The notes under the pieces are model-generated. The model saw nothing but the letters and a program-made list of their open reading frames with translations, was not told the origin of the DNA and did not search any database. Position numbers and translations under genes: made by a program. Of a DNA stretch of 64,000 nt, positions 1,813-47,646 are shown piece by piece. The stretch's first letter is position 1, and each line of letters opens with the position of its first letter. The stretch comes from a virus (taxonomy: Duplodnaviria; Caudoviricetes). The stretch lies in IMG/VR virus record IMGVR_UViG_3300037418_001071, positions 440 through 64,439 of that record; one strand, given 5' to 3'.

Positions 1813-3063
1813 ATGGCGAAGCGCGGAATCAACCTGCTCAGTGACATCCAGATCCGCCGGTGGATAGCGGCCGGCGAACCCGTCGCAAAGTCCGATGGTG
1901 GCGGCCTTACGTTCACCCTTTCCAAGGCCGGGACGGCGTCATGGATTCTTCGCTACATGCGCGAGGGTCGCGCCCGGGAATTGACGATCGGGAACTACCC
2001 GGATATCAGCCTGGCCGGGGCCCGCAAGATGGCGAGCGAACACCGCGTCGCCGTCGACAAGGGGCAAGACCCCGCGGCAGAAAAGCGCGCCGAGCGCCTG
2101 AAACTGCGTGGGACGTGGACGGTGCGCAAGCTGGCGGAGGATTTGACGGCGAAGGTGCTCGACGCCGGCAAATTGGCGCCGGGGACCGTCAAAGCGAAGA
2201 AGTGGGATTTGCAAAACGTGATCCTGCCGAAGCTCGGCCCTCTCGAGGTTCAGGCTGTCATCGCTGAGGACATTGTCAGCATGCTCGAGCGCTCCGGCCG
2301 CAGCTGGGTCATGCAGAAGCGGATTCTGAGTACAACCGTGCAACTGTTCGATCACGCTATCGGCCGACAGTTGATCAAGATCAGCCCAGAATCCGGGATC
2401 AAACTGGCGGCTTTGATGGGGCCTCGCCCACCAATACGCAAGCGCGTCATGCTGCAGGAGGATGAGTTGCGCCGGCTGCTGTCGTCCATTGGCGATCTCG
2501 GCGAAGAGAACGGGCTGGCCCTAAAGATCATGCTGGCGACATGCGTCCGTACTGTTGAGCTGGTCAAGGCGCGATGGGAGCACATCGACTTCGACCGCGG
2601 CACCTGGTTCGTGCCCGATGAATCCGTGAAGACGCGGGTAGGCTTTCTGGTTCCGATCACACCCACCGTAGCGGGATGGTTCAGGGAACTGGAGCGCCTC
2701 GCCGGCGGCTCGCCATGGGTCTTGCCAGCCAGGGATGACCGCCGCGTTGGCCAGCATGTGGGAAGGTCGACCCTATCGGCCGCCCTGTATCGCGCGTTCG
2801 AGCGCGGAGCTTTGCAGACACGGAAATTCACGCCTCACGACACCCGCAGCACCGCGAAAGGTCACATGCGCAACCTCGGCGTGTCGCGTGAAATTTCGGA
2901 GATCGCGCTGAATCACACCCTCAAGGGCATGGAGGCGGTCTACGACGTCCGCGACGAAATCCCGGAACGGCGCCAGGCGCTTGAATTGTGGGCGTCATTC
3001 CTGGTCGCGTGCGAGAAGGGCGAACCGTGGAATGTGGTTCCGATAACGAGATCTGCAGCATAG
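1813..3063 (+). CDS. int: Tyrosine integrase, P4-like with N-terminal arm-binding domain
   Basis: DGGGLTF...W..RY arm-binding N-terminus; catalytic R (RTVEL), HDTR, LNH and Y (AVY). Confidence 0.95.
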   Translation: MAKRGINLLSDIQIRRWIAAGEPVAKSDGGGLTFTLSKAGTASWILRYMREGRARELTIGNYPDISLAGARKMASEHRVAVDKGQDPAAEKRAERLKLRGTWTVRKLAEDLTAKVLDAGKLAPGTVKAKKWDLQNVILPKLGPLEVQAVIAEDIVSMLERSGRSWVMQKRILSTTVQLFDHAIGRQLIKISPESGIKLAALMGPRPPIRKRVMLQEDELRRLLSSIGDLGEENGLALKIMLATCVRTVELVKARWEHIDFDRGTWFVPDESVKTRVGFLVPITPTVAGWFRELERLAGGSPWVLPARDDRRVGQHVGRSTLSAALYRAFERGALQTRKFTPHDTRSTAKGHMRNLGVSREISEIALNHTLKGMEAVYDVRDEIPERRQALELWASFLVACEKGEPWNVVPITRSAA

Positions 3064-3159
3064 GCGCCCTGTCGTGACAATTGGCGAGTCTTTTGCCAGA
3101 TTGGCAGCGTATCATTCCTGAGCGAAACGGCGCGCGCAGATACCAAACATGGGGATGCA

Positions 3160-4077
3160 GTGGGATTATTTTTGAAGCGGAAACCCCGAGATGACGACGC
3201 TCTTGTAATCGAGTTGCCGGTCATCTTTAAGCGGGACACGATGTATTGGCTCATCCGGAATTTGTTCCGCGGGCTACAAGATCGTCCCAAGACCATAGCT
3301 CTCGACTTTGGCAAGCTTGAGAAGATCCAAGTTGGCGGCATTACGACGCTGAGCAACATTATCGAGCTATGCCGAACCAGGGGTATCAAAACCGTATTTC
3401 GTAATGCTGGCGCATGCGAGGCTGTAGAGTTCCTGCAAGGCTCCGGACTCCTGACGCTGTATCAGGCGACACCCGCTGACCCGAAGGCCCGCACCAGCTT
3501 TCTGCCGCTTCAATTGGTAGAGTACGACAAGAGCTTCAATCATGTGGCGAACCAGCTTATCCCATGGTTGGCGAATATCCTGGGTCATGACGAGCGAGCG
3601 TTGACGTCACTCAAAGCGGGGCTAGCGGAAGTCTTCAACAATATCAAAGACCATTCTACTGTCAACGTCGGATGCAGTGCATCACACTATGACTCGTCCG
3701 AGGACCTCATCACTATCTGCGTCGCTGACTTTGGCATCGGGATACCCGGCAGGGTACGGCAAAAGATCCAACTCGCCAGCGATCAAGCAGCCATCGCAAT
3801 GGCATGCCAGCACGGGTTCTCGACAAAAACTACCCCGCGCAATCGTGGCGCCGGCCTTCACGTTTTGATACAAAATATTGTAGCGAGGAACCATGGCACA
3901 GTTATCATTTGCTCAGGCCAAGGGATCTACTCGAACGTCTACAACGCCGAAGGCCCTCTCAAGGGTACGGGCAGACCAGCGCCAGGACAGTATCCTGGAA
4001 CTATGATATATATGATCTTGCCGAAGTCAGAATTTGTGCCAGACGACATAGATGAAGAGGAATTCCAATGGGACTGA
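3160..4077 (+). CDS. STAS-like domain fused to GHKL/HATPase_c (anti-sigma kinase-like) domain
   Basis: N-terminal IALDFGKLEKIQVGGITTL (STAS-like); EVFNNIKDH (N box), DFGIGI (G1), GFSTK, RGAGL (G2). Confidence 0.8.
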   Translation: MGLFLKRKPRDDDALVIELPVIFKRDTMYWLIRNLFRGLQDRPKTIALDFGKLEKIQVGGITTLSNIIELCRTRGIKTVFRNAGACEAVEFLQGSGLLTLYQATPADPKARTSFLPLQLVEYDKSFNHVANQLIPWLANILGHDERALTSLKAGLAEVFNNIKDHSTVNVGCSASHYDSSEDLITICVADFGIGIPGRVRQKIQLASDQAAIAMACQHGFSTKTTPRNRGAGLHVLIQNIVARNHGTVIICSGQGIYSNVYNAEGPLKGTGRPAPGQYPGTMIYMILPKSEFVPDDIDEEEFQWD

Positions 4078-5211: not shown

Positions 5212-5409
5212 ATGACAGAACGCACTGATCTTGTCACCGCTAGCCGGGTCGACGCTACCCTCATCCTGTTGCCGCTCATTGGGTGGCTGGAGGCGTCATG
5301 CACGCTTGCGGTCAACAGCGTGCCGGCCGACGTCGCGGCCCGCGTGCTGACCCTGCCGATGGCACGGCGTCAGATCGACCTCATGCCACTTGCAGCATTT
5401 CCGGTGTGA
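5212..5409 (+). CDS. Small hypothetical protein
   Basis: 65-aa ORF downstream of the DUF2471-like gene. Confidence 0.4.
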   Translation: MTERTDLVTASRVDATLILLPLIGWLEASCTLAVNSVPADVAARVLTLPMARRQIDLMPLAAFPV

Positions 5410-6736: not shown

Positions 6737-7249
6737 CTATCTCGAAGGCGCGTCACCCTGCGCGTTCTTGGGCCACGCTTCGATCAGGGTGCGCTTCTCC
6801 GAATTCAGTCGCTCAGCTTCTTCAGCCACTTCTCGGCGTCGTCCTGAGCACTCTTCAAGAAGCTGCCCGTAGGTACTGGCGAGCGCACGTAGGGCATCGG
6901 CGGAATAGTCGGGCACTGTGCGGTTGATCTTGGCGATGGCGTCGCGCAGGCCGCCAGTAGCAGCAGCGGAACTAGCAGCCAGGCTGCGGATAGTCTCTTC
7001 ACGTTTGGCTCCTTCAGTTGCAGCGGCTTCGCGCTGGGCGCGCCACGCCTCGGTGACGGCCCGCGCGGCTTCCTTGTCCTTGGCGATCTGGCGATCCCAC
7101 TCGGCACGCACTTCCTGCCGACCAATCTCGCGCTCGTGCTCAAGGAACTGATGAATGCTCGCTACGGCGCCCACTGCCAAGGCACCGATCACGATGATTT
7201 CGAATAGCAGTTTGTAGGGCGCGAGCCGCAGGAGTAAGGCGGCGATCAT
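6737..7249 (-). CDS. rz: Rz-like inner-membrane spanin
   Basis: N-terminal TM helix then Ala/Arg/Glu-rich coiled coil; downstream of endolysin; hosts an embedded lipoprotein ORF. Confidence 0.8.
   Translation of the reverse strand: MIAALLLRLAPYKLLFEIIVIGALAVGAVASIHQFLEHEREIGRQEVRAEWDRQIAKDKEAARAVTEAWRAQREAAATEGAKREETIRSLAASSAAATGGLRDAIAKINRTVPDYSADALRALASTYGQLLEECSGRRREVAEEAERLNSEKRTLIEAWPKNAQGDAPSR
6805..7002 (-). CDS. rz1: Rz1-like outer-membrane spanin lipoprotein
   Basis: GTG start; lipobox LLLAAC; Pro-rich; nested in Rz in another frame. Confidence 0.8.
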   Translation of the reverse strand: MKRLSAAWLLVPLLLLAACATPSPRSTAQCPTIPPMPYVRSPVPTGSFLKSAQDDAEKWLKKLSD

Positions 7250-30298: not shown

Positions 30299-31336
30299 TT
30301 AGGCGACGACGGCGGCGTCAGCGATGGACCACAGACGCGTCACCGCACGGCCATTGAAAACGCCGAAGCCGTTGTACCATTCCACACGGGTACGGAAGAC
30401 CGGCGCGGATTGCAGCTCACCCAAATCACGCACGTCGACGCCCCCGTTTTGCAGGCCCAGAACGCCGTCGTTGCCGAAGCTCAGAACGTAGATCGAGGTG
30501 CCGGTTGCAGTGCCCGAGGTGCAGGCTTCCGTGAACGGCAGAATCTGGGCGCCGGCGTTGTCCAGATCGACGGTCAGGATTGGCAGGCCGTTGTACATCT
30601 CGACCGGCTTGCCGAAGCCGTCCACGCCCATCGTGATGAAGCCGCCGACGGTGGTGGAGCGCGACGCCTGGGTAATGCGGCGCTTCATCGCCTTGCTCAT
30701 CAGCAGATGCGTCGGGTTGAGGGTCTGGTCGATTGCCTCGTCCAGCTTGGACAGCGACAGCGCGGAGCCGTTTGCGGTCGAACCAGCAGCGACCAGCTGG
30801 TTGCCGGTGACGCGCACCTGCAGGCCGTCGAACTCGCGCGGGTCGGTGGCGGTGTCGCCCTTGATGAATTTCTTGGTCCAGGCAAGCGACAGCGCGCGAA
30901 TTTTCATCGCCTCGTGCACGGCGCGCTGATTTGCGCCCATGGTGTCGATGATGAATTTATCGACGTCCAGGTCGCCGCCGGCGATCACCAGCGATTCGGT
31001 GAGCGGGTTCAGGATGCCGGTCGACGGCGTGTACGCTTCATTCACGCCACGAAAGCCGACACCAGGCAGGGAGTCCTCGCGGTTGTACTTCAGCGCATTG
31101 CCAGCGATCGTCTCGAACGGCAGGGTTTGCAGGATCGCGGATGAGCCGGCATACAGTTCGATGATTGCCTGGCGCAGCACGTCGCCGGTTTCCAGCTTGG
31201 CTGCTTCGACCAGGGTCAAGGCGCCGGCGATCATCCCTTGCCGCGCCATGTAATTCGTCAGCGCGACATACAGCGGGTCGAACACCCAGGCGAACGCCGC
31301 CACGAAGACGGCTTGGACAAGCTTCAGGAGTTTCAT
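30299..31336 (-). CDS. Major capsid protein with N-terminal leader
   Basis: ALTLVEAAKL; LPFETIAGNALKYNRE; ESLVIAGGDLDVDKFI; EFDGLQVRV; RTRVEWY. Confidence 0.9.
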   Translation of the reverse strand: MKLLKLVQAVFVAAFAWVFDPLYVALTNYMARQGMIAGALTLVEAAKLETGDVLRQAIIELYAGSSAILQTLPFETIAGNALKYNREDSLPGVGFRGVNEAYTPSTGILNPLTESLVIAGGDLDVDKFIIDTMGANQRAVHEAMKIRALSLAWTKKFIKGDTATDPREFDGLQVRVTGNQLVAAGSTANGSALSLSKLDEAIDQTLNPTHLLMSKAMKRRITQASRSTTVGGFITMGVDGFGKPVEMYNGLPILTVDLDNAGAQILPFTEACTSGTATGTSIYVLSFGNDGVLGLQNGGVDVRDLGELQSAPVFRTRVEWYNGFGVFNGRAVTRLWSIADAAVVA

Positions 31337-31347
31337 GATTGATACCT

Positions 31348-32178
31348 TCACTTTTTTGCCGACCTTGCCGCAGTCATGCGCTCGGTTGGCGGGAGATGAG
31401 ATAGGTCTTTGGCGCCCATGGAGCCTTGACCACCGCCCCCACCGCCCGAGCTGCTTGCCGGGAACCAGTGGGGCTTTGTTTTTTTCATGCCTTCAAGCCA
31501 TTCAGCCGGGCCGAACGGTGTCTTGCCGTCCTTGCCCATCACAGGTCGGCCGTCGCTACCCAATTGCACGGCATTTCCTTCGGCGTCGAGCTTGAAAATC
31601 TGACGGCCCAACAGCAGGGCGTCTTCAACCGCATATTTATGCAACTCACCGGCGGCAGACCGAATCGCATTGTCGAGAACGCTCTGGATATACGCATCAG
31701 CGCGCTTATTTGCAGCCTCGGTATTGGCACGCTCGGCTTCAACCTGGCGCTCCAAATCCGCGCGCTGTCGCTCCATCCGCTTCTCGACGACCTCCGAAAT
31801 CTTGCCGGCAGCGATCAGCTTCAGTTCTTCGTCATTGTCAAACCGCGACATGATTTCTTTAACCTTGACCGGATCGATGCCCTCGTACTGCTTCTCGATT
31901 TCCTTGCGCCTCTTCTCCGCATCACGCGCAGCTTGGCGTTCGGATTCGAGTGCCGATTTCAGGCCTTTCGTGTCTTCCAGGCCGATGACGTCAAGGTGGA
32001 ACTTCCCGTCCCTCTCGACATAGAGCGCCCGCTGAGGCTCGGGAACCGAGTCCAGCGAATCCGCGACCAGCGGCACTGCTGCCAGGATCAGGCCACTGCG
32101 CGCCATGTGGCTAAACAGGCGTTTGTGAACGAGATCCAGGAGACTGCGAACAAAGGTTTTTGCCTTGGTGATTTGCAT
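31348..32178 (-). CDS. Scaffolding protein with N-terminal leader
   Basis: RBS GAGGGA before MQITK; DSLDSVPE..ALYVERDGKFHLDV; coiled coil; PHWFPASSSGGG. Confidence 0.8.
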   Translation of the reverse strand: MQITKAKTFVRSLLDLVHKRLFSHMARSGLILAAVPLVADSLDSVPEPQRALYVERDGKFHLDVIGLEDTKGLKSALESERQAARDAEKRRKEIEKQYEGIDPVKVKEIMSRFDNDEELKLIAAGKISEVVEKRMERQRADLERQVEAERANTEAANKRADAYIQSVLDNAIRSAAGELHKYAVEDALLLGRQIFKLDAEGNAVQLGSDGRPVMGKDGKTPFGPAEWLEGMKKTKPHWFPASSSGGGGGGQGSMGAKDLSHLPPTERMTAARSAKK

Positions 32179-32300: not shown

Positions 32301-33761
32301 CTAACTTGCGGCGCTCGGTACAGACGCCGATGGATCGGCCGCGACCGGCGCACCGCTTTTCATCTTGGCCTGCTCGCTTTCCGGCGTCGCCTCGATCGAA
32401 ATCACTTCACCCTGCTTCAGATTGCTGAACAGGGTGTCGTAGCTATAGGCGCCCTTTTGCCAGCCCATGATCAATGCGGTCAGCTTTTCCGCGTCCATCT
32501 GCGTCGGCATGAATTCACGGTTCAGGCTGAATTTGACACCGCCACTCATGCCAGCCCACTCGCTGAACGTCTGCAGTGCCTGCGCGAGCCCCATCGAGAT
32601 CGCTTGTGCGGCACTCGCCAATGTCGCCTGTTCGCCACTTCGATGGATGCCCGCGGCATCTGCGGACTCGACGCCTTTTTTCTGAACCTCCAGCATGCGC
32701 GCGCCGAGAATTGCCATCATCAGCTCTTTGCGCTCGCACAGGTCTTTCAGCGTTCCAAGGCCCTGGCCGGTGAATTCCAGATATGCCGCCTTGGCGAGCG
32801 GATCGGTGAATACCCATGCGGTCGTGCTGCCGATGTAAAGCTTGTCCGGCGCTTCGCCATCGTTGTTTGGCGGCGAATATCCGGACACGACAGGCGTCGG
32901 CAGTCCCGTGAAATGCGCGCCATGCTCCCAGTCGGCCATCGTCAGGTAATGCGACAGGTTGATGTCAACCAGGTCGATCAGCGGCGGCTCGTCCACATCT
33001 GGCGTGGTGTCGTCCACGCCGATGAAGTAAAACGGGATGAATGCCAGCGGATCGCCGTTCATCTGCGGAATGGAGTCGACTCCGATCTGGATCGGGTTGC
33101 CTCTTTCGTCCAGCTTGAACAGGCGAATCCGATAGACCGTTCGGACACTCTCCCCGGATGCCACGTCGACCAAGTCGAGAACGCGATACCGGTCTTCCGG
33201 CTTCCCGTCGGTGAATTCATCAACCTGCTCGGAATGCACTTCCTTCAGCACGACCTGCGACAGCACGTACTTGTTGTTCACGCGCCGGCAGCGCCAGTTG
33301 ATGATCGACTCTGCCTTATAAATGTTCATCGACGGCCGCAGATTCAGCGCCAGCACATCGGCCTCGGTCATGGTCTCGGTATCTACGACCGGATAGTCGA
33401 CAAACACGCCGACCCGGCCAACGACCATGCATTCTTCAGCGATCTGTTGCGCGAATATCTGGAACGGCACGCCCGACATGGTCACATCGCTGATGTGATC
33501 TTCCAGGCCGACCGGAACTTCCAGATCGGGCGACTTGCGAAACAGCATGCCGAGCAGACCGGCAATCGTGCGCCAGGTCGCGTTGTAGAAAGTGGCGCGT
33601 TTTACATACGCGGCGTAATCCTCCTGGGTCTGATCCTTCAGCTTGGGAAGGTAGGCCTCGCCGGCCGCATGGATACTGTCCTGGCCGGCGGAGACATCGC
33701 GACAGCGCTGCCACTTGGGCGCCATTGCGACGTAGTCTTTGTGCTTGTCGTTCAGAGCCAT
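32301..33761 (-). CDS. Portal protein (DUF4055-like)
   Basis: YLPKL..Y.AYVKRATFYNAT.RT; PPLIDLVDINLSHY..AD.EHGAHFTGLP. Confidence 0.9.
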   Translation of the reverse strand: MALNDKHKDYVAMAPKWQRCRDVSAGQDSIHAAGEAYLPKLKDQTQEDYAAYVKRATFYNATWRTIAGLLGMLFRKSPDLEVPVGLEDHISDVTMSGVPFQIFAQQIAEECMVVGRVGVFVDYPVVDTETMTEADVLALNLRPSMNIYKAESIINWRCRRVNNKYVLSQVVLKEVHSEQVDEFTDGKPEDRYRVLDLVDVASGESVRTVYRIRLFKLDERGNPIQIGVDSIPQMNGDPLAFIPFYFIGVDDTTPDVDEPPLIDLVDINLSHYLTMADWEHGAHFTGLPTPVVSGYSPPNNDGEAPDKLYIGSTTAWVFTDPLAKAAYLEFTGQGLGTLKDLCERKELMMAILGARMLEVQKKGVESADAAGIHRSGEQATLASAAQAISMGLAQALQTFSEWAGMSGGVKFSLNREFMPTQMDAEKLTALIMGWQKGAYSYDTLFSNLKQGEVISIEATPESEQAKMKSGAPVAADPSASVPSAAS

Positions 33762-35017
33762 CAGGCACCGCCAATTTTGATTCGCTGCATGTTTCTTCCT
33801 TGGATCGGCCAGCGATTCACGATGAAATAACCGGACGCATCCAACACGTGATCCAGGCCGCCACTCTTGTCGGGCTCGCCGTTCTTGTCGTACGCCTGCT
33901 TTTCCAGCGATTCCACCAGGTGCGGGCAGATATCGACGTTCACGCGAAAGCGCCGCACACCTTCGCTATGAATCATGCGGTTGTAGCTCAGCACCCGGTC
34001 CTTCACCGCCGGATTACTGCTGTTGACGCACACCTGGAACCCGGCCTGCCTCAGGATCGCGAGATCCGATTCGCTCGCGTTGTTGCTCTTGCGCGAATTA
34101 CCCGATGCGTCCGGATACACCATCACGCTGTGGCCGCACTCCTTATACCGGGCGCGCAACAGCGCAGCCATCGCCGGTGTATCCAGGATGTCGACGTGCT
34201 CCATCACAGCGTGCGGATCGCCATCGCGCAGCACGAACAGCACTGCGGCCATCCTGCCAACGTTGAAGTCAAGGCCAACGTGAATCGTCTCGCCTTCGCG
34301 GATGGTCTCAGTGGAGGCGTTCAGGTGACGATCGAACTCCGGGTAGACGCTGCCGGAAGTCAGGTTCGTGAATTCGCCGTCGAGGTAAGCCGACAGTAGA
34401 TTGCTTGGATACGAGGCCTTCAGGCTGTCGATGTACCCAGACGGCAGGTTGCGCTCGTTGCTATAGGTGCTCGCCTTGATCAAGCGGTATCCGGCCGCGG
34501 GCTTCTTCTTCCAGCGGTCGTAGACAAAGCGAAATCCCTCCGGAGTCGTCGCCACTCCAACGGTATTCAACGCGCCGTCCGGCTTCTTCTGTCGGTTCCG
34601 GCTGATGATCTTGTTCCATACCTCTTGCGCCTGATTGGGCTTGAGCGTATCCAGCTCGTCCACCAGGCTATCGGCCACCTCATAGCCGACGATGCGCTCC
34701 GGCGTGTCCATCGTGCGAAAGATGATGTCGCCGGCGTTCTCTAACTCGATTACCGCGTTCGACTTGTTCAATCGATACGGCACCTTGTGCTCTTCCAGCA
34801 TCTCCACGAAGCGCGGAAAGCCAATGTTGCGCACCAGGTCAAACGTCGGCAGGTAATACGCGATGTTCTGGCCTGGATAGGCGAGTTTCTTCGTCAGAGC
34901 ACGCGCAACCGCTGCATGAGTCTTGCCACTGCCGAATCCAGCCACGAAAGCCGGGAACTGGTCGAGGCAGGTGACGAACTCGAACTGCGGGTCACTCAGT
35001 CGGATCTGCGTCGTCAT
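33761..35017 (-). CDS. terL: Terminase large subunit
   Basis: Walker A AGFGSGKT; VDELD Walker B; GLDFNV; YPDASG; DHVLDASGY. Confidence 0.95.
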   Translation of the reverse strand: MTTQIRLSDPQFEFVTCLDQFPAFVAGFGSGKTHAAVARALTKKLAYPGQNIAYYLPTFDLVRNIGFPRFVEMLEEHKVPYRLNKSNAVIELENAGDIIFRTMDTPERIVGYEVADSLVDELDTLKPNQAQEVWNKIISRNRQKKPDGALNTVGVATTPEGFRFVYDRWKKKPAAGYRLIKASTYSNERNLPSGYIDSLKASYPSNLLSAYLDGEFTNLTSGSVYPEFDRHLNASTETIREGETIHVGLDFNVGRMAAVLFVLRDGDPHAVMEHVDILDTPAMAALLRARYKECGHSVMVYPDASGNSRKSNNASESDLAILRQAGFQVCVNSSNPAVKDRVLSYNRMIHSEGVRRFRVNVDICPHLVESLEKQAYDKNGEPDKSGGLDHVLDASGYFIVNRWPIQGRNMQRIKIGGA

Positions 35018-35693
35018 ACTTCATGATCTGAATGACTGGCGGCCCAAGCTGTAGCGGCGCACCATCCTTGCCGGTGAGTTCAGTCCGGTCCTTGAACATG
35101 CCTAGGTGGCGCGCGACCTTCTCCAGCGCCGCCATCTGGTCGTGCATCTTGACCTCGAGACCATCCTTACCGAGCTTCACGCCGGCGTACATCAGCCTGG
35201 CGCCACCCTTCAGGTTGCGCGTGTCCTGCACGTGCATCGAGCCCTTGCCCTCGCCCTTGCATTCAGGGCACTCAGGATTCGCGGCCTTGAGCCTGTCGAA
35301 ACCGAATCCACCTTCGCAGGTAGGCTCGGCGTTGCTCTTCTTCGCCGCCTCGATCTTGGCCACTTCGAACTCGGCCTCAGTCCACTGATAGAAGTGATCG
35401 ATGCCCCAGCAGTGCCGGCAGCAATTGCGGCGGTATTGGACCAAATCGTTCGCGTCAGCGGTGGCGATCTGCCACAAACGCTGTAGCACCATGTCCTGCG
35501 TGATCTCGGTGCGAGCCTCGCGTGCCTTCATGGCGTCTGTGATGGCGGCTGTGATCCTAGTTTTGCCTAGTAGCTCAGGCCCAATTTTCCCGGCATTGCG
35601 CTCGCTATACCCGGCGCGGATCGCTGCCTGGGTCGCGTTCAAGTCGATCAGATACTCGTCGACGAAGCGCTGCTGTTTGGGGGTGAGAGCCAT
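34992..35693 (-). CDS. terS: Terminase small subunit with Zn-finger insertion
   Basis: LTPKQQRFVDEYLIDLNATQAAIRAGYS; CCRHCWG...CPECKGEG; ALEKVARHLGMF. Confidence 0.9.
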   Translation of the reverse strand: MALTPKQQRFVDEYLIDLNATQAAIRAGYSERNAGKIGPELLGKTRITAAITDAMKAREARTEITQDMVLQRLWQIATADANDLVQYRRNCCRHCWGIDHFYQWTEAEFEVAKIEAAKKSNAEPTCEGGFGFDRLKAANPECPECKGEGKGSMHVQDTRNLKGGARLMYAGVKLGKDGLEVKMHDQMAALEKVARHLGMFKDRTELTGKDGAPLQLGPPVIQIMKYDDADPTE

Positions 35694-35846
35694 TTAGGTA
35701 TTCCATGTGCAGTGCACCAATCGGTTTGGTCTAGGCCCGCGTTTTTCGGCACCTCGCACTATGGCGTTGCAACGCAACATTCGGCGCGGACCTCTCCGTT
35801 TGCGCCATAGGGCCTATTCCTTTTGATAGGTATGTGTGGGCGGTCC

Positions 35847-35875
35847 TTGAATGCACTCATTGAGTGTACTACTAT
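35847..35875 (+). promoter_or_regulatory. Sigma70 promoter with palindromic operator in the spacer
   Basis: TTGAAT-17 bp-TACTAT; CACTCA-T-TGAGTG at 35854-35866; two more CACTCA half-sites at 35892 and 35900. Confidence 0.75.
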
Positions 35876-35916
35876 GAACCTATCGAAGCAGCACTCACCC
35901 ACTCAAGGAGAACGCC

Positions 35917-36270
35917 ATGATCACCAAGTCCAAGCAAGCCTGGGAAGTCGGCCAAACCGTCAAAGTCGGCTTCCTGTCGAGCCTCGTTGTAACGGCAAAG
36001 GTCATCACCCCGGGCGACTACGCTCCCGATGCCTACATCCTGCGTCGCAATGAGCAACTGTATAAATTCGTGCCGCACAATGGCCTGGAAAAGATTTCTC
36101 TTGATGAAGCCGCCGAGATGGTCGCCGCAGCCAAGGTGCATGTCACACGCGGCGGCGGCGCAGAGATTCTCGCAAAAGCAGCCAGCGCACCTAGTTCCTT
36201 CGCCAAGTTCGAGGGCATGGTCGAACAAGACGGCGAAATGATGGCTCTGTATAGCAACGTTAGCCTGTAA
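35917..36270 (+). CDS. Hypothetical protein, candidate anti-CRISPR/anti-defence
   Basis: Strong RBS AAGGAG; first gene of a plus-strand operon inserted upstream of terS. Confidence 0.7.
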   Translation: MITKSKQAWEVGQTVKVGFLSSLVVTAKVITPGDYAPDAYILRRNEQLYKFVPHNGLEKISLDEAAEMVAAAKVHVTRGGGAEILAKAASAPSSFAKFEGMVEQDGEMMALYSNVSL

Positions 36271-36286
36271 CCCAAAGGAGATCGAC

Positions 36287-36478
36287 ATGGCAACCTATAC
36301 CTACACCGTTCTGTACCAAGGCGCAGAGATCGCCACTTCTGAAGGCATGTCGTTCGAATGGGCTCGCGAAGAAGCTCTTTCCGACGTTAGCTCAATGTAC
36401 CCGCGCGATGAATTAGAATTCGTGGCAACGTGCGATACCGGCGTCGTCAGGCATATTTCCGGCCCTTGCTACCTCTGA
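36287..36478 (+). CDS. Small acidic protein, candidate anti-CRISPR/anti-defence
   Basis: Strong RBS AAGGAG; 63 aa, Glu/Asp-rich. Confidence 0.7.
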   Translation: MATYTYTVLYQGAEIATSEGMSFEWAREEALSDVSSMYPRDELEFVATCDTGVVRHISGPCYL

Positions 36479-36481
36479 CCA

Positions 36482-36676
36482 ATGAACAAACCGACACCTG
36501 ACGAAGTCCGCGCCGCACGCTTGGCGGCCGGACTCACGCAAACCGAAGCCGCAGCAGTCATAGGCAAGCCCCTGCGTACGTGGCAGAACTGGGAGGCGCC
36601 CGCAGACTCGCCATCCCATCGCTCGATGGATGCGGCGCTGTTCGAACTGTTCCTACTCAAATCGAAGAAGCCGTAA
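36482..36676 (+). CDS. Small XRE HTH regulator (Aca-like)
   Basis: EVRAARLAAGLTQTEAAAVIGKPLRTWQNWE...M..ALFELFLLK; last gene of the operon. Confidence 0.85.
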   Translation: MNKPTPDEVRAARLAAGLTQTEAAAVIGKPLRTWQNWEAPADSPSHRSMDAALFELFLLKSKKP

Positions 36677-36689
36677 GCGGCCGGCTTTT
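36668..36689 (+). terminator. Terminator of the aca-like operon
   Basis: AAGCCG-N8-CGGCTT followed by TT. Confidence 0.55.
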
Positions 36690-36692
36690 ACG

Positions 36693-36959
36693 CTAGCCTC
36701 GCTCCAGCACTTCCGCTACCCGCCGCAGCTCCCCGGGCAGCAGCCTGCGCACGACATGCACATTGCCGACTTCGAAGCAGCCGCCCTTGTCGATGCGCTC
36801 CAGGCGAAGCCGGTCATCGCCGGCGCCGCGGTGCTCGTCCAGGATGCGCTCGCCCCATGTTTCCAACCAGGCTTTGAACGTCAGCCGGTAGGCGATGCCG
36901 CGCTTCTCGGCGTTCCTCTTGTTCTGCTGGTAGAGGCGGTACAAATTGTCGAAGTCCAT
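36693..36959 (-). CDS. Short HNH-like endonuclease or remnant
   Basis: RGIAYRLTFKAW...LERIDKGGCFEVGNV. Confidence 0.5.
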   Translation of the reverse strand: MDFDNLYRLYQQNKRNAEKRGIAYRLTFKAWLETWGERILDEHRGAGDDRLRLERIDKGGCFEVGNVHVVRRLLPGELRRVAEVLERG

Positions 36960-36969
36960 CTCGACCGAG

Positions 36970-37206
36970 CTACTTTGGCGGCCGGATCAACATGGCCGTC
37001 GAATGCGGGACCAGCTGCGCGAGTTCCGTCAGGCTGTCCCACGACTTGCCGTACCCAAGCGAGCGCAGGATCTCGTGCGCCTCCTCTGCTTCGACCAAGC
37101 GCTGGCAGATACGATCAAGCGCGGCGATATCCTCGACGGCGATTGGCTTGCGGCCTACGACTGCGCGGATGATCTGGGCGCGGTATGCGTCGATAGGGCC
37201 GCTCAT
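36970..37206 (-). CDS. Hypothetical late protein
   Basis: 78-aa ORF MSGPIDAYRAQ..., in line with the late operon. Confidence 0.5.
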   Translation of the reverse strand: MSGPIDAYRAQIIRAVVGRKPIAVEDIAALDRICQRLVEAEEAHEILRSLGYGKSWDSLTELAQLVPHSTAMLIRPPK

Positions 37207-37334
37207 GCTGCTCTCGGGCGAAGCGCGGCGCGGTCCCGTTCCAGTTGGATGAGGATCATCAGCCATGCGCGCTCCGCTTCGATGGTGATGTGCATGGCGA
37301 ACCTAAAAAGTACTCAAAAATGCTTACGTTTCTC

Positions 37335-37363
37335 TTGACTCAGTAAACTATTTTGTTTACCAT
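37335..37363 (+). promoter_or_regulatory. hicAB promoter with palindromic operator
   Basis: TTGACT-17-TACCAT; GTAAAC-N6-GTTTAC at 37343-37360. Confidence 0.75.
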
Positions 37364-37394
37364 GTATCTACGGTCAACGAGAAAAGGAGGTGTG

Positions 37395-37571
37395 GTGAAG
37401 CAGAGTGAGTTCGTAAGGTGGCTGACCCGCAAGGGCGCCACCTTCACCGAAGGGAAAGAGCACCTGATTGCTCATCTCAACGGTGAAAAGGCCCCGATTC
37501 CCCGGCATCCCAGCAAGGAACTGAAACAAGGAACGGTGAACGGGATTCTGAAACGACTGAAACTGAAATAG
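37395..37571 (+). CDS. hicA: HicA toxin (mRNA interferase)
   Basis: RBS AAGGAGG, GTG start; MKQSEFVRWL..EGKEH..IPRHPSKEL..GTV.GILK.L. Confidence 0.9.
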   Translation: MKQSEFVRWLTRKGATFTEGKEHLIAHLNGEKAPIPRHPSKELKQGTVNGILKRLKLK

Positions 37572-37640
37572 GGAGGGAGCCCCGCAAGGGGTTTCCCACT
37601 CTGCTTAGCCACACCTCCGCACTACCACGAAAGGGAGCAC

Positions 37641-38057
37641 ATGAAATATCCAGCTACATTCACACCGGCCGAAGAAGGTGGATTCGTCATTACCTTCCGC
37701 GACATTCCAGAGGCGATCAGCCAGGGCGACGATGAGGCCGAAGCGCTCGACATGGCCGCTGACGTCCTTCTGACGGTCATGGACTTCTACTTCGAGGACC
37801 GCCGCCCGGTTCCCATGCCGTCGGCGCCGCAAGAAGGCGAGCGGATGATTCCGTTGCCCTTGAGCGCGGCATCGAAAGTCTTGCTTCTCAACGAGATGCT
37901 GGCCCAGGATGTAGGGCCGTCCGAGTTGGCGCGCCGGATGGGCACGTCGAAGCAGGAGGCAAACCGCCTCACCGACTTGAAGCACGCGACGAAGATAGAC
38001 CGCATTGCCGATGCCATGGCGGCGCTCGGGCGCGATCTCGATCTGGTCGTGCGCTGA
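37641..38057 (+). CDS. hicB: HicB antitoxin with C-terminal HTH
   Basis: MKYPATFTPAEEGGFVITFRDIPEAISQG; ELARRMGTSKQEANRL. Confidence 0.9.
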   Translation: MKYPATFTPAEEGGFVITFRDIPEAISQGDDEAEALDMAADVLLTVMDFYFEDRRPVPMPSAPQEGERMIPLPLSAASKVLLLNEMLAQDVGPSELARRMGTSKQEANRLTDLKHATKIDRIADAMAALGRDLDLVVR

Positions 38058-45583: not shown

Positions 45584-46924
45584 TCAGTTGAATCCGCCGC
45601 GGCTTGCGGCCAAACGTGGGCCGGGTTGCGGCGCGCGGCGGTGCCAGCGGTACGGCAGATCCTCGAACCGCGTTTGCGCCCCGATGTACTGCAGGCCGAC
45701 GACGCCGGGACATCCCTGACGCTGCTTCGCGCCGATCCACTCACAGATACCTTTGTCCTGCGTCTCCGGATTCCAGAGCTCGTCGCGATACAGGAAGATG
45801 ATGTTGGCGGCGTCCTGCTCGATGTAGCCAGACACGCCGAGGTCCGACATAATCGGGCGCTTGTCTCCGCGCTTCTCGCACTCGCGGTTCAACTGGGCCA
45901 ACAGGATGATTGCTGCGTCCAGTTCCTTGCCGATGGCGATCAGACCGCGCGTGTATTCGCCCATTGCCTCGTGCAGCTTGTCGGACTTGGATCCAGTGAT
46001 GAACGACAACTGGTCGATGCAGAGCATGTCCAGGCCGCGCTGCCGCTTAATCTGGCGTGCCTTCGCGCGGATCTCGGGAATGCTCAACCCGGTCTGGTCG
46101 TCGATGAACAGGTTCAGGTTGCGAGAGTTGATCGTCGCCGCCGTGATGGCCTCCCAGCGCGCCGTGTCGTCGTGACCTTCACCCGGCCGGCGCAGCCACT
46201 TCATGTCGACGTGGGCGAGCGCCGCGATGTTGCGGTCGTTGACCTGGTTCGTCGACATCTCCATCGACAGGAACAGGGACGAGTAATCGCGCGCGGCATT
46301 GCGGCAGATCCCGAGGCCGGCGGCAGTCTTGCCGGTACCGGGCCGGCCGGCGATGACGGTCAGCGTGCCACGCTCAAGGCCACCATCCAGCATCTCGTCC
46401 ACGTGCTGGTATCCGGTTGGAATCGGGCGAATCTTCCCCTCCATACGGTGCTGCAGCAGGGTCAGGTATTCGTGCAGCGTCTCGTCGAGCCGGCGCGGGC
46501 TCTTCGTCATCCTGCGCTGCCCCATCGCATCCAGCCTGGCAGCGGCATCGGCGATGCACTCGGTGCTGTCCTTGCCCGATTCGGCATCGGCAGCCAGATC
46601 GATCGACAGAGCATGCAACGCGCGCTTCGTCGCCTTCTCGATCACGATGCCGGCGTGGTAGGCGATCTTCGAACTACTTGGCGCAGAGGCGTGCAACTGG
46701 CCAAGGTACGGGAACAGTTCGGCGTCCAGGCGCTCGGCCAGCGTGATCGCGTCGACGCGCTTGCCGGCGGCGAGTTGCTTCGTGATCTCCGTGAATATCG
46801 TCCGGTGGTCGCCGCGGTAGAAGTGGCCGGCATCCAGTTCCGGGATCTGGTCGAAAGCGTCGTTGTCGCGCAGGATTGCGCCCAGAACGGCCTGCTCGGC
46901 TTCGATGTTGAACTGGTCGATCAT
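45584..46924 (-). CDS. dnaB: Replicative DNA helicase
   Basis: EAEQAVLGAIL; AGRPGTGKT; SMEM; IDQL; QLNR; SGYIEQDAA; KQRQG. Confidence 0.95.
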   Translation of the reverse strand: MIDQFNIEAEQAVLGAILRDNDAFDQIPELDAGHFYRGDHRTIFTEITKQLAAGKRVDAITLAERLDAELFPYLGQLHASAPSSSKIAYHAGIVIEKATKRALHALSIDLAADAESGKDSTECIADAAARLDAMGQRRMTKSPRRLDETLHEYLTLLQHRMEGKIRPIPTGYQHVDEMLDGGLERGTLTVIAGRPGTGKTAAGLGICRNAARDYSSLFLSMEMSTNQVNDRNIAALAHVDMKWLRRPGEGHDDTARWEAITAATINSRNLNLFIDDQTGLSIPEIRAKARQIKRQRGLDMLCIDQLSFITGSKSDKLHEAMGEYTRGLIAIGKELDAAIILLAQLNRECEKRGDKRPIMSDLGVSGYIEQDAANIIFLYRDELWNPETQDKGICEWIGAKQRQGCPGVVGLQYIGAQTRFEDLPYRWHRRAPQPGPRLAASRGGFN

Positions 46925-47646
46925 GCTGCCTCCCCGAACAGCCCGGCCTGCTCTTGCTCGACCGGTTCACGCGCGAACAGTTGGCCTTGCGCGGCGGCTT
47001 GATCGATGCGCTCGCATGCGATGTCGAAGAAGCGTTGTTCGATCTCGATCCCGATGTATCGGTACCCGCTGCGGACTGCTGCCACGCCAAGCGAGCCGCT
47101 TCCCATGTATGGGTCTAGGATCGTAGCGCCGGCCGGCAGCTTGCACTGCTCAATGACCCAAGCCAGCATCGCTACAGGCTTCTGTGCCGGGTGCAGCCTC
47201 ACGGCGCCACGTGACACGTTCTCCTCGCCGCTGCGAACCATGCCGCGCCATTTCTGCGAGAACAGCCGGGCCGGGCCCTTGAGGTTCGTCCAGGCCAACT
47301 CGCAATCGGCGCAACTGTCCGAAGTGCCGCCGTCGCGCTTGTCCCAGACCAGCCAACACGAAGCGTCCGGCAGGCGGCTGCCAAAGTGGTTACCTCCGAA
47401 GAGCACAATCTTTTCGTAGGCCAGCCAAGGCAGAGGGTCAAATGCCTGGTCGTCACCCACGATGTCGAAGCCGTAGTTCGTGCCCTCGTTCCAGCGGTTG
47501 CGGCCGGTACCGCTCAGCTTTGCGAGATTGATGCCGTAGGGCGGATCGGCGATCAGCGCATCGACGTGTTCAAGCGTCGGCGCGATCTCCACGCAGTTGC
47601 CTCGATACAGCGTCGCTTCTCCGATGATGACTTTTTCGTAGCTCAT
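46921..47646 (-). CDS. DNA adenine/N4-cytosine methyltransferase (orphan)
   Basis: DPPYG catalytic motif; HPAQKP; DPYMGSGS SAM-binding motif. Confidence 0.9.
   Translation of the reverse strand: MSYEKVIIGEATLYRGNCVEIAPTLEHVDALIADPPYGINLAKLSGTGRNRWNEGTNYGFDIVGDDQAFDPLPWLAYEKIVLFGGNHFGSRLPDASCWLVWDKRDGGTSDSCADCELAWTNLKGPARLFSQKWRGMVRSGEENVSRGAVRLHPAQKPVAMLAWVIEQCKLPAGATILDPYMGSGSLGVAAVRSGYRYIGIEIEQRFFDIACERIDQAAAQGQLFAREPVEQEQAGLFGEAA

Follow-up and report, generated by a model that had tools for sequence, protein, structure and literature searches.

A putative acr-aca10-type accessory operon, antisense between an HNH-like gene and terS, in a soil or rhizosphere phage

The 64,000-nucleotide stretch of the virus record IMGVR_UViG_3300037418_001071 analyzed here (the window, taken at its full length) comes from a phage read almost wholly from the minus strand. 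Between terS and a gene for an HNH-like protein (p88), antisense to the late region, it carries a plus-strand accessory cassette consisting of a promoter, two small open reading frames (ORF1 and ORF2), and a terminal gene for a helix-turn-helix (HTH) protein homologous to the regulator Aca10. The features of the cassette are as follows (handles such as L031 denote related loci that are introduced below).

35847-36689, plus strand: accessory cassette, from promoter to hairpin.
35847-35852, plus strand: -35 hexamer TTGAAT, 4/6 positions in common with TTGACA; TTGAAT is also found in L031 and L074.
35854-35866, plus strand: predicted Aca10 operator, the perfect palindrome CACTCA-T-TGAGTG, within the 17-nt promoter spacer.
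35870-35875, plus strand: -10 hexamer TACTAT, 4/6 positions in common with TATAAT, separated from the -35 hexamer by the 17-nt spacer.
35882-35916, plus strand: predicted 5' leader of ~35 nt with two CACTCA copies and AAGGAGA; its start is placed ~7 nt past the -10 hexamer.
35892-35897 and 35900-35905, plus strand: CACTCA copies in the 5' untranslated region (5'UTR).
35917-36270, plus strand: ORF1, 117 aa, candidate cargo, with the ribosome-binding site (RBS) AAGGAGA.
36287-36478, plus strand: ORF2, 63 aa, acidic (isoelectric point, pI, 4.18), candidate cargo, with the RBS AAGGAGA.
36482-36676, plus strand: aca10 homologue, 64 aa, single HTH, predicted autorepressor.
36668-36687, no strand: hairpin (6 pairs, loop of 8) between the convergent HTH gene and p88, a shared weak terminator.

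These coordinates and strands bear out an earlier interpretation made from the letters of the window (hereinafter, the sequence-only reading), which had described a self-contained plus-strand unit set against the late operon upstream of terS, with a perfect palindrome in the promoter spacer and two small ORFs, the second one acidic, each preceded by a strong RBS. The terminator that it placed after the HTH gene exists as a hairpin but is not a strong one: it overlaps the HTH stop codon, its plus-strand tail is TTTT only, and the terminator search put it on the minus strand, that is, assigned it to p88.

The identity of the HTH protein follows from a phmmer search against the PDB chain sequences, where it matched the Aca10 chain of 7XI5 over its full length (E = 1e-11, 47.6 bits), the runner-up being Aca3 with E = 0.05. 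Residues 3-64 of the window protein align with residues 5-61 of 7XI5, and 31 of the aligned positions are identical. The Aca10 of 7XI5, a crystal structure, comes from Pseudomonas citronellolis and has the reference sequence WP_074980464; the protein is a dimer, in which DNA binding requires R44 and is aided by Q22 and Q37, R34 is another of the DNA-binding residues, and G49 and E52 lie in the dimer interface, G49 being important for dimerization (Lee et al., 2022, PMC9410881). According to the alignment, Q22, R34, Q37, R44, and E52 of 7XI5 correspond to Q20, R32, Q35, R47, and E55 of the window protein, respectively. In PHROG, the protein matches phrog_7950, “transcriptional repressor” (9e-9), while in the profile libraries Aca2_YdiL and HTH_3 stay below threshold and MqsA is matched weakly (TIGR03830, E = 5e-4). 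Matches to RmrA in PADLOC were weak and confined to the HTH part, and were rejected. Acr-associated Aca proteins have a mean size of 60–65 aa (Shehreen et al., 2022, PMC9410906). Taking into account the full-length similarity, the size of ~60–65 aa, the DNA-contact residues, and an operator overlapping the core promoter, the window protein is, by sequence, a member of the Aca10 family, and the resemblance to Aca10-type proteins noted in the sequence-only reading proves correct. Its gene starts 3 nt past the ORF2 stop and has no Shine–Dalgarno sequence of its own; it is probably translationally coupled to ORF2.

In P. citronellolis, Aca10 binds the palindromic inverted repeat IR2, AATACGCTCA-T-TGAGCGTATT, inside the TTGCAA-N16-TATTCT promoter of the acrIC7-acrIC6-aca10 operon, and the operator core mapped by electrophoretic mobility shift assay is CGCTCA-T-TGAGCG (Lee et al., 2022, PMC9410881). 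The window palindrome coincides with this published operator in its core, its 1-bp centre, and its position in the promoter, in agreement with the earlier proposal of a promoter repressed through inverted repeats by the product of the last gene. The core CTCA-N-TGAG has one copy in the 64-kb window, and ~1 chance copy per window is expected, so its mere presence proves little; this copy gains its weight from lying in a promoter spacer, upstream of genes the last of which encodes an Aca10 homologue. Operator-like matches in the window number three against 1.18 expected, and 13 out of 100 shuffles reach three. A second operator-like site at 5273-5285 (CGCTCATTGGGTG, two mismatches) was set aside as being at chance level and having no surrounding promoter.

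Relatives of the HTH protein are encoded by 40 viral contigs. Their neighborhoods were compared as related loci with their own ORF calling, which is reliable at high GC only; the low-GC loci L034-36, L041-42, L046, and L049 were left uninterpreted. An Aca10-type operator lies within the operon promoter in L031, L032/33, L036, L037, L038, and L040. In L037, where the HTH protein is 84% identical to that of the window, the promoter site is AATACGCTCA-a-TGAGCGTATA, that is, nearly the published IR2. Four loci with ORF1 are compared by promoter spacer and gene content:

Window: Aca10 operator in the spacer; genes ORF1, ORF2, Aca10.
L031: Aca10 operator with one mismatch in the spacer; genes ORF1, Aca10 (no ORF2).
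L074 (terS 97% identical): different spacer; genes ORF1, HTH-B.
L071: spacer as in L074; genes ORF1, ORF2, HTH-B.

HTH-B is a protein distinct from Aca10 that passes Pfam HTH_3. In all four loci, ORF1 and the leader from the -10 hexamer onward are retained, the leader of L071 being more divergent, and the promoter spacer and upstream sequence switch together with the 3' regulator gene between the window and L031 on the one hand and L074 and L071 on the other. This suggests that the operator is linked to the regulator, and that the aca gene and its operator have been exchanged as a pair around a constant cargo gene. With homology to the characterized system and this comparative co-variation both pointing the same way, we regard autoregulation of the operon by the Aca10 homologue as highly probable.

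The same comparison bears on the two CACTCA copies in the 5'UTR, which the sequence-only reading had correctly located but had also taken for operator half-sites. That role does not hold, as the leader with both copies is kept in L074 despite the different regulator and promoter spacer; it thus belongs with ORF1 and is not evidence for additional Aca10 sites. The window leader folds worse than shuffled sequence (z +1.3), the leaders as a set giving z +1.3 to +1.7, no hairpin was found in the cassette leaders, and an Rfam scan of 35600-36900 yielded no match; hence, the RNA motif predicted for the 5'UTR of aca10 operons (Feussner et al., 2026, PMC13551039) is not seen here.

The leaders downstream of the -10 hexamer share an A/C-rich motif, approximately GTCAT(A/T)nnAGCA(G/A)C...ACCA, situated at 35876-35916 in the window, at 2415-2450 in L037, at ~2365-2400 in L032, and on the minus strand just upstream of gp22 in the Ralstonia phage Raharianne (NC_054955, L001). 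The cassettes that carry it have unrelated cargo and unrelated regulators, and the motif is unstructured and differs from the hairpin RNA motif of PMC13551039. It may act as a translation-enhancing leader common to these cassettes, or it may mark a joint left by recombination.

The exact cassette is present in metagenome contigs from four rhizosphere/soil runs of different studies: the 905-nt stretch 35910-36814 is identical in contigs from three of the four runs, and 793 nt of it are found in the fourth. A blastn search of the cassette against 50,697 phage records produced no match. At the joint 35684>35882 the promoter module is exactly replaced, at 36089>36482 ORF2 is skipped, and 35693>36729 suggests relatives from which the whole cassette is absent or in which it is replaced; these joints count as weak evidence, because such joints can come from relatives. 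Around the exact stretch (35000-37400, all four runs), divergent variants of the flanking genes occur at much higher depth, and thus the phage group is micro-diverse in the sampled soils.

Several Aca10-like genes stand in other arrangements. In L040, a 90-aa Aca10-like protein (2957-3273) is encoded between large-terminase-like and portal-like genes, and a palindrome of the operator type, TTGCACTCG-T-TGAGTGCTA, lies 22 nt before the start of its gene; from its sequence context, this looks like a solo, self-regulated copy without cargo. In L032 (2562-2810) and L033 (2428-2676), the product of the first gene of the Aca10 operon shares 67% identity with the N-terminal end of the Aca10 homologue over its first ~24 residues, beyond which the similarity is lost; the gene looks like a recombination remnant within aca10. 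In Raharianne, an unannotated Aca10 homologue (7071-7226, minus strand), 54% identical to the window protein, closes the small-gene run gp18, gp17, gp16 under the promoter TTGACA-17-TATATT. An ORF1 homologue, gp22, is separate from that run; it is divergent from gp23, which lies upstream of terL, is annotated as hypothetical, and is taken here as a putative terS, and it is followed by gp21, a different small putative HTH protein (~57–59 aa). Raharianne is an isolated, culturable phage carrying both units.

Turning to the cargo, ORF1, ORF2, and the HTH gene are all under purifying selection relative to their relatives (nonsynonymous to synonymous polymorphism ratio, pN/pS, 0.15–0.29), and thus are real genes. 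ORF1 is near-neutral (pI 6.1) and has 592 homologous protein clusters, mostly of ~100 aa and none of them named, from Cupriavidus, Burkholderia, Paraburkholderia, Massilia, Herbaspirillum, Variovorax, Stenotrophomonas, and assorted metagenome-assembled genomes. Residues 1-60 contain 22 invariant positions, among them T31-P32, D34, P37-D38-A39-Y40, and F51-V52-P53-H54, and the tail is variable. The AlphaFold model shows a five-stranded, Tudor/SH3-like barrel (predicted local distance difference test, pLDDT, ~80) followed by helices. PipX and other Tudor-like/KOW/SH3 barrels resemble it at the level of the fold, with ~10% sequence identity, below the significance guide; they share no motifs with ORF1, and so no functional inference is warranted. 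A search for fused, longer forms of the barrel found none, which is weak evidence.

Only four entries in a set of 50,697 phage records have ORF1, and it is lacking in most phages with similar terminases; over 109 loci, its direct downstream neighbor belongs to more than 60 unrelated clusters. Two settings recur. In one, ORF1 opens the run of genes that follows a CI-type (HTH+S24) repressor block and is succeeded by PD-(D/E)XK exonuclease and RecT genes, a position which, by gene order, is the head of a lambda-PL-like early operon. In the other, it forms a reverse-oriented unit; at least 25 of the 109 loci have it adjoining terS, terL, or portal (examples are the window group, L007, L008, L018, L019, L103-111, L119, L129, L136, L140, and Raharianne gp22). 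These units span lineages with terL only 23–90% identical; the strand of ORF1 is always opposite to that of the packaging genes, and the junctions vary (between HNH and terS, between terL and portal, or upstream of terS). Directly after ORF1, a small putative DNA-binding gene is present in ~30% of the 109 loci, and none in approximately two thirds. Three kinds of these regulators are supported by profiles, namely Aca10, HTH-B of L071, and the L015/L030 type, and other kinds were recognized by eye: the type of Raharianne gp21 (nine loci), an 83-aa type (five loci), and several ribbon-helix-helix-like ones. Judged from these neighborhoods, the evidence for the association of ORF1 is good: it appears to be an accessory gene that moves between contexts and pairs with several unrelated small regulators.

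ORF2 is predicted to fold as a beta-beta-alpha-beta-beta mini-domain, confidently modeled but unmatched. It is a near-orphan, missing in L031 where the Aca10-type HTH persists, and a tblastn search against the phage records retrieved no match. The 1597-aa protein P0127 was considered as a homologue and rejected, since it is a repeat protein matching through a short repeated motif, which we take as chance.

The surroundings of the cassette in the window comprise the following genes:

30299-31351, minus strand: major head protein.
32301-33761, minus strand: portal, packaging module.
33761-35017, minus strand: terL, packaging gene.
34992-35693, minus strand: terS, packaging gene.
36693-36959, minus strand: p88, HNH-like, 88 aa (phrog_3118, “HNH endonuclease,” 2.4e-6; also phrog_16521).
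36970-37266, minus strand: p98.
45584-46924, minus strand: DnaB-type helicase.
46921-47646, minus strand: DNA methyltransferase (phrog_67, 2e-40), directly downstream of the DnaB-type helicase.

As terS, terL, portal, p88, and p98 are all encoded on the minus strand, the plus-strand cassette runs antisense within the late genes. The common HNH-terminase packaging set, formed here by p88, terS, terL, and portal, is interrupted by the Aca10 cassette. Two plus-strand islands interrupt the otherwise almost wholly minus-strand window, the cassette and a HicA/HicB pair. The latter, at 37353-38057 on the plus strand and ~700 bp from the cassette, encodes a 72-aa HicA toxin (Pfam HicA_toxin 4.8e-9) and a 138-aa HicB-like antitoxin, with the promoter-like TTGACT-17-TACCAT at 37335-37363. 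With this island so near to the cassette, the stretch from the late leader to terS seems to be a hotspot for reverse-oriented accessory units. The DNA methyltransferase may provide the phage with a second, modification-based counter-restriction function. The source is a temperate-type soil or rhizosphere phage, and its host is probably a soil betaproteobacterium rather than Pseudomonas.

Taking all this into account, we read the locus as a self-contained acr-aca10-type accessory operon, antisense between the HNH-like gene and terS, with a probability of about 0.6. Its layout is that of acr-aca operons: cargo of 117 and 63 aa, intergenic gaps of 16 and 3 nt, a single strand, and a phage as the carrier. 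Homologues of the HTH protein close short runs of small genes, and nine out of ten scanned upstream cargo genes match no named family, the tenth having a domain of unknown function, DUF7249. The neighborhoods of HTH homologues had been proposed as a check in the sequence-only reading. For acrIC7-acrIC6, the validated partner is a homologue ~50% identical to the window protein (Leon et al., 2021, PMC7913775). Pairing of one acr family with different aca families is a described trait of Acrs (Shehreen et al., 2022, PMC9410906), and anti-defence genes are overrepresented in operons under Aca control (Feussner et al., 2026, PMC13551039). The latter study surveyed operons regulated by Aca1-12 in RefSeq and IMG/VR and obtained many unannotated cargo clusters, so loci of the window type are to be expected, and the window locus itself may be in that set.

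Association, early or independent expression, mobility between contexts, and orphan character incline us, on balance, to the anti-defence role of ORF1 and ORF2 proposed in the sequence-only reading, whereas an anti-CRISPR function specifically is doubtful. More tentatively, and less likely than not, ORF1 may represent a large unnamed anti-defence family (~600 clusters in Burkholderiales and other Proteobacteria) acting on a conserved target, which different phages would place either first in an early operon or under several unrelated Aca-type repressors, with ORF2 as a second, lineage-specific inhibitor. The conservation of ORF1 suggests a conserved target, such as an immune signaling nucleotide or a host enzyme, and not a fast-evolving Cas surface; in the former case, ORF1 might, by analogy, be a sponge like Tad2 or Acb2.

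A number of observations weigh against this interpretation. The promoter, called near-consensus in the sequence-only reading, agrees with the consensus at 8/12 positions only and is missing from the promoter scan set obtained at ≥9/12. In the regulator, G49 of Aca10 is replaced by A52, still a small residue, and five residues are inserted in the α3–α4 loop, just before the critical R47. The barrel of ORF1 is 55–80% identical across many Burkholderiales and some Gammaproteobacteria, and so is atypically conserved and widespread for an Acr; this conservation and spread would suit a conserved function in host takeover as well. A link between Aca-like genes and acr cannot be taken for granted, and many of these genes lack it (Shehreen et al., 2022, PMC9410906). 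Finally, no family in Pfam, NCBIfam, or PADLOC (E ≤ 0.1) or in PHROG and no PDB chain sequence is matched by ORF1 or ORF2, neither of which the sequence-only reading had recognized as a named Acr, and Foldseek and VIA searches with their models gave sub-threshold matches only. This comparison with Acr and anti-defence proteins covers Pfam, PHROG, NCBIfam, PADLOC, and PDB, with Anti-CRISPRdb, dbAPIS, and the AcrIC6 and AcrIC7 sequences lying outside it. Peptide strings of ORF1, ORF2, and the HTH protein were not found in the literature searched, including the supplements of PMC7913775.

Under the acr-aca10-type reading, the operon would work as follows. Upon entry of the phage DNA no repressor is present, and the sigma-70 promoter would fire; the unstructured leader and the strong RBSs would then yield a burst of ORF1 and ORF2, and the Aca10 homologue, having no RBS of its own, would be synthesized at a lower rate through coupling to ORF2. 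As its dimer accumulates, it would bind CACTCA-T-TGAGTG between the -35 and -10 hexamers, occlude RNA polymerase, and turn the operon off. ORF1 and ORF2 would thus be early-acting inhibitors of host defence or of another host function, whose overproduction must be limited.

The same regulation could, with clearly lower probability, serve cargo that has nothing to do with counter-defence: ORF1 might be an early host-takeover or transcription-modulating factor, the Tudor/KOW-like protein binding RNA polymerase or a helicase and ORF2 being a lineage-specific add-on, or it might be a lysogenic-conversion or superinfection-exclusion moron. Its place first after the CI repressor block in many prophages is that of N in lambda, the degree to which it is conserved and widespread would suit a host target that is itself conserved, the Tudor/KOW-like fold also favors this alternative, and the own promoter and reverse orientation are the classic moron layout. 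However, the near-neutral ORF1 (pI 6.1) has no arginine-rich motif; a core regulator is unlikely to be scattered over more than 60 neighborhoods, to be missing from most phages (4/50,697), or to recruit dedicated Aca-type repressors; and the enrichment of Aca-regulated operons in anti-defence genes (PMC13551039) also speaks for the other side.

A role of ORF1 in the packaging or late-gene programme of the phage, as a terminase-associated or late-transcription factor whose expression the HTH protein merely times, would explain why at least 25 of the 109 loci, including Raharianne, have an ORF1 homologue adjacent to terS, terL, or portal, but we consider it improbable: ORF1 is always on the opposite strand and at differing junctions, in many other phages it is in the early region far from the packaging genes, most phages with similar terminases do without it, and the joint 35693>36729 suggests relatives with the cassette absent or replaced. 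Least probable of all is a reverse-order type II toxin–antitoxin or addiction module of the HigBA/MqsRA kind, with ORF1 or ORF2 as the toxin and the HTH protein as an autoregulating antitoxin. While the HTH protein has weak matches to MqsA (TIGR03830, E = 5e-4), an Xre-like antitoxin HTH, and HigA-2, and structural neighbors of Aca10 include HigA2 (PMC9410881), it resembles Aca10 (E = 1e-11) much more strongly than any antitoxin chain (E > 0.1), and at 64 aa it is too small for a toxin-neutralizing domain. The order of genes, small ones first and the HTH last, and the promoter palindrome fit higBA and mqsRA, and a true HicAB pair is 700 bp away, yet neither ORF1 nor ORF2 falls into a toxin family (Pfam, NCBIfam, PADLOC, E ≤ 0.1), pairing is not obligate, as L031 keeps the HTH without ORF2, and ORF1 has no adjacent small regulator in approximately two thirds of the 109 loci, which would be intolerable for a toxin.

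In the search for new anti-defence genes, no anchors have been more productive than Aca regulators, and the anchor is secure here because both the protein and the operator match experimentally characterized ones. It points to ORF1, a large, unnamed, and structurally unassigned family that has been captured independently by several small regulators, and one cargo family under several regulators is the pattern that led to earlier Acr discoveries. ORF1 and ORF2 are thus candidates for screening as new inhibitors of bacterial immunity. If either of them inhibits defence, Aca10-linked counter-defence extends from Pseudomonas to soil Betaproteobacteria, and a new small inhibitor fold is added; agricultural interest attaches to phages of Ralstonia, Burkholderia, and Cupriavidus. 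If the cargo is not counter-defence, the locus still shows Aca10-type control of other phage accessory genes. In addition, the natural chimeras provide a clean comparative case for linked exchange of aca and operator around a constant cargo gene.

Among known systems, the HigA2/MqsA-type antitoxin systems are unlike the window cassette in that the latter has no recognizable toxin and no toxin-binding extension, and the upstream genes occur without the HTH. Classic phage morons are independent promoter–gene–terminator units between late genes, as in lambdoid phages. Like them, the window cassette is a self-contained unit set between conserved late genes, and some close relatives have it while others do not; in contrast to it, morons are usually expressed from the prophage and have no dedicated Aca-type autorepressor. 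The acr-aca1 loci of Mu-like Pseudomonas phages, e.g., JBD30 (PMC9410881), have, as does the window cassette, an independent strong promoter, small cargo, and a terminal HTH autorepressor acting on promoter inverted repeats, the whole unit lying amid structural or packaging genes. They differ in the regulator family (Aca1), in being co-oriented with the structural genes, whereas the window cassette is antisense, and in cargo with validated Acr activity.

The closest known system is acrIC7-acrIC6-aca10 of P. citronellolis (Leon et al., 2021, PMC7913775; Lee et al., 2022, PMC9410881; 7XI5). The window cargo is unrelated to anything named; the arms of its palindrome are 6 bp long (CACTCA) as against 10 bp (AATACGCTCA), the palindrome is ~2 nt nearer to the -35 hexamer, no separate IR1 is present, and the HTH protein differs by the 5-residue loop insertion and by Ala in place of G49. 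On the other hand, both operons are situated on mobile elements and have two small cargo genes upstream of a terminal 64–65-aa single-HTH gene whose products are ~50% identical and retain the Q/R/Q/R contacts, and in both of them the operator core xCTCA-T-TGAGx, with its 1-bp centre, lies between the -35 and -10 hexamers.

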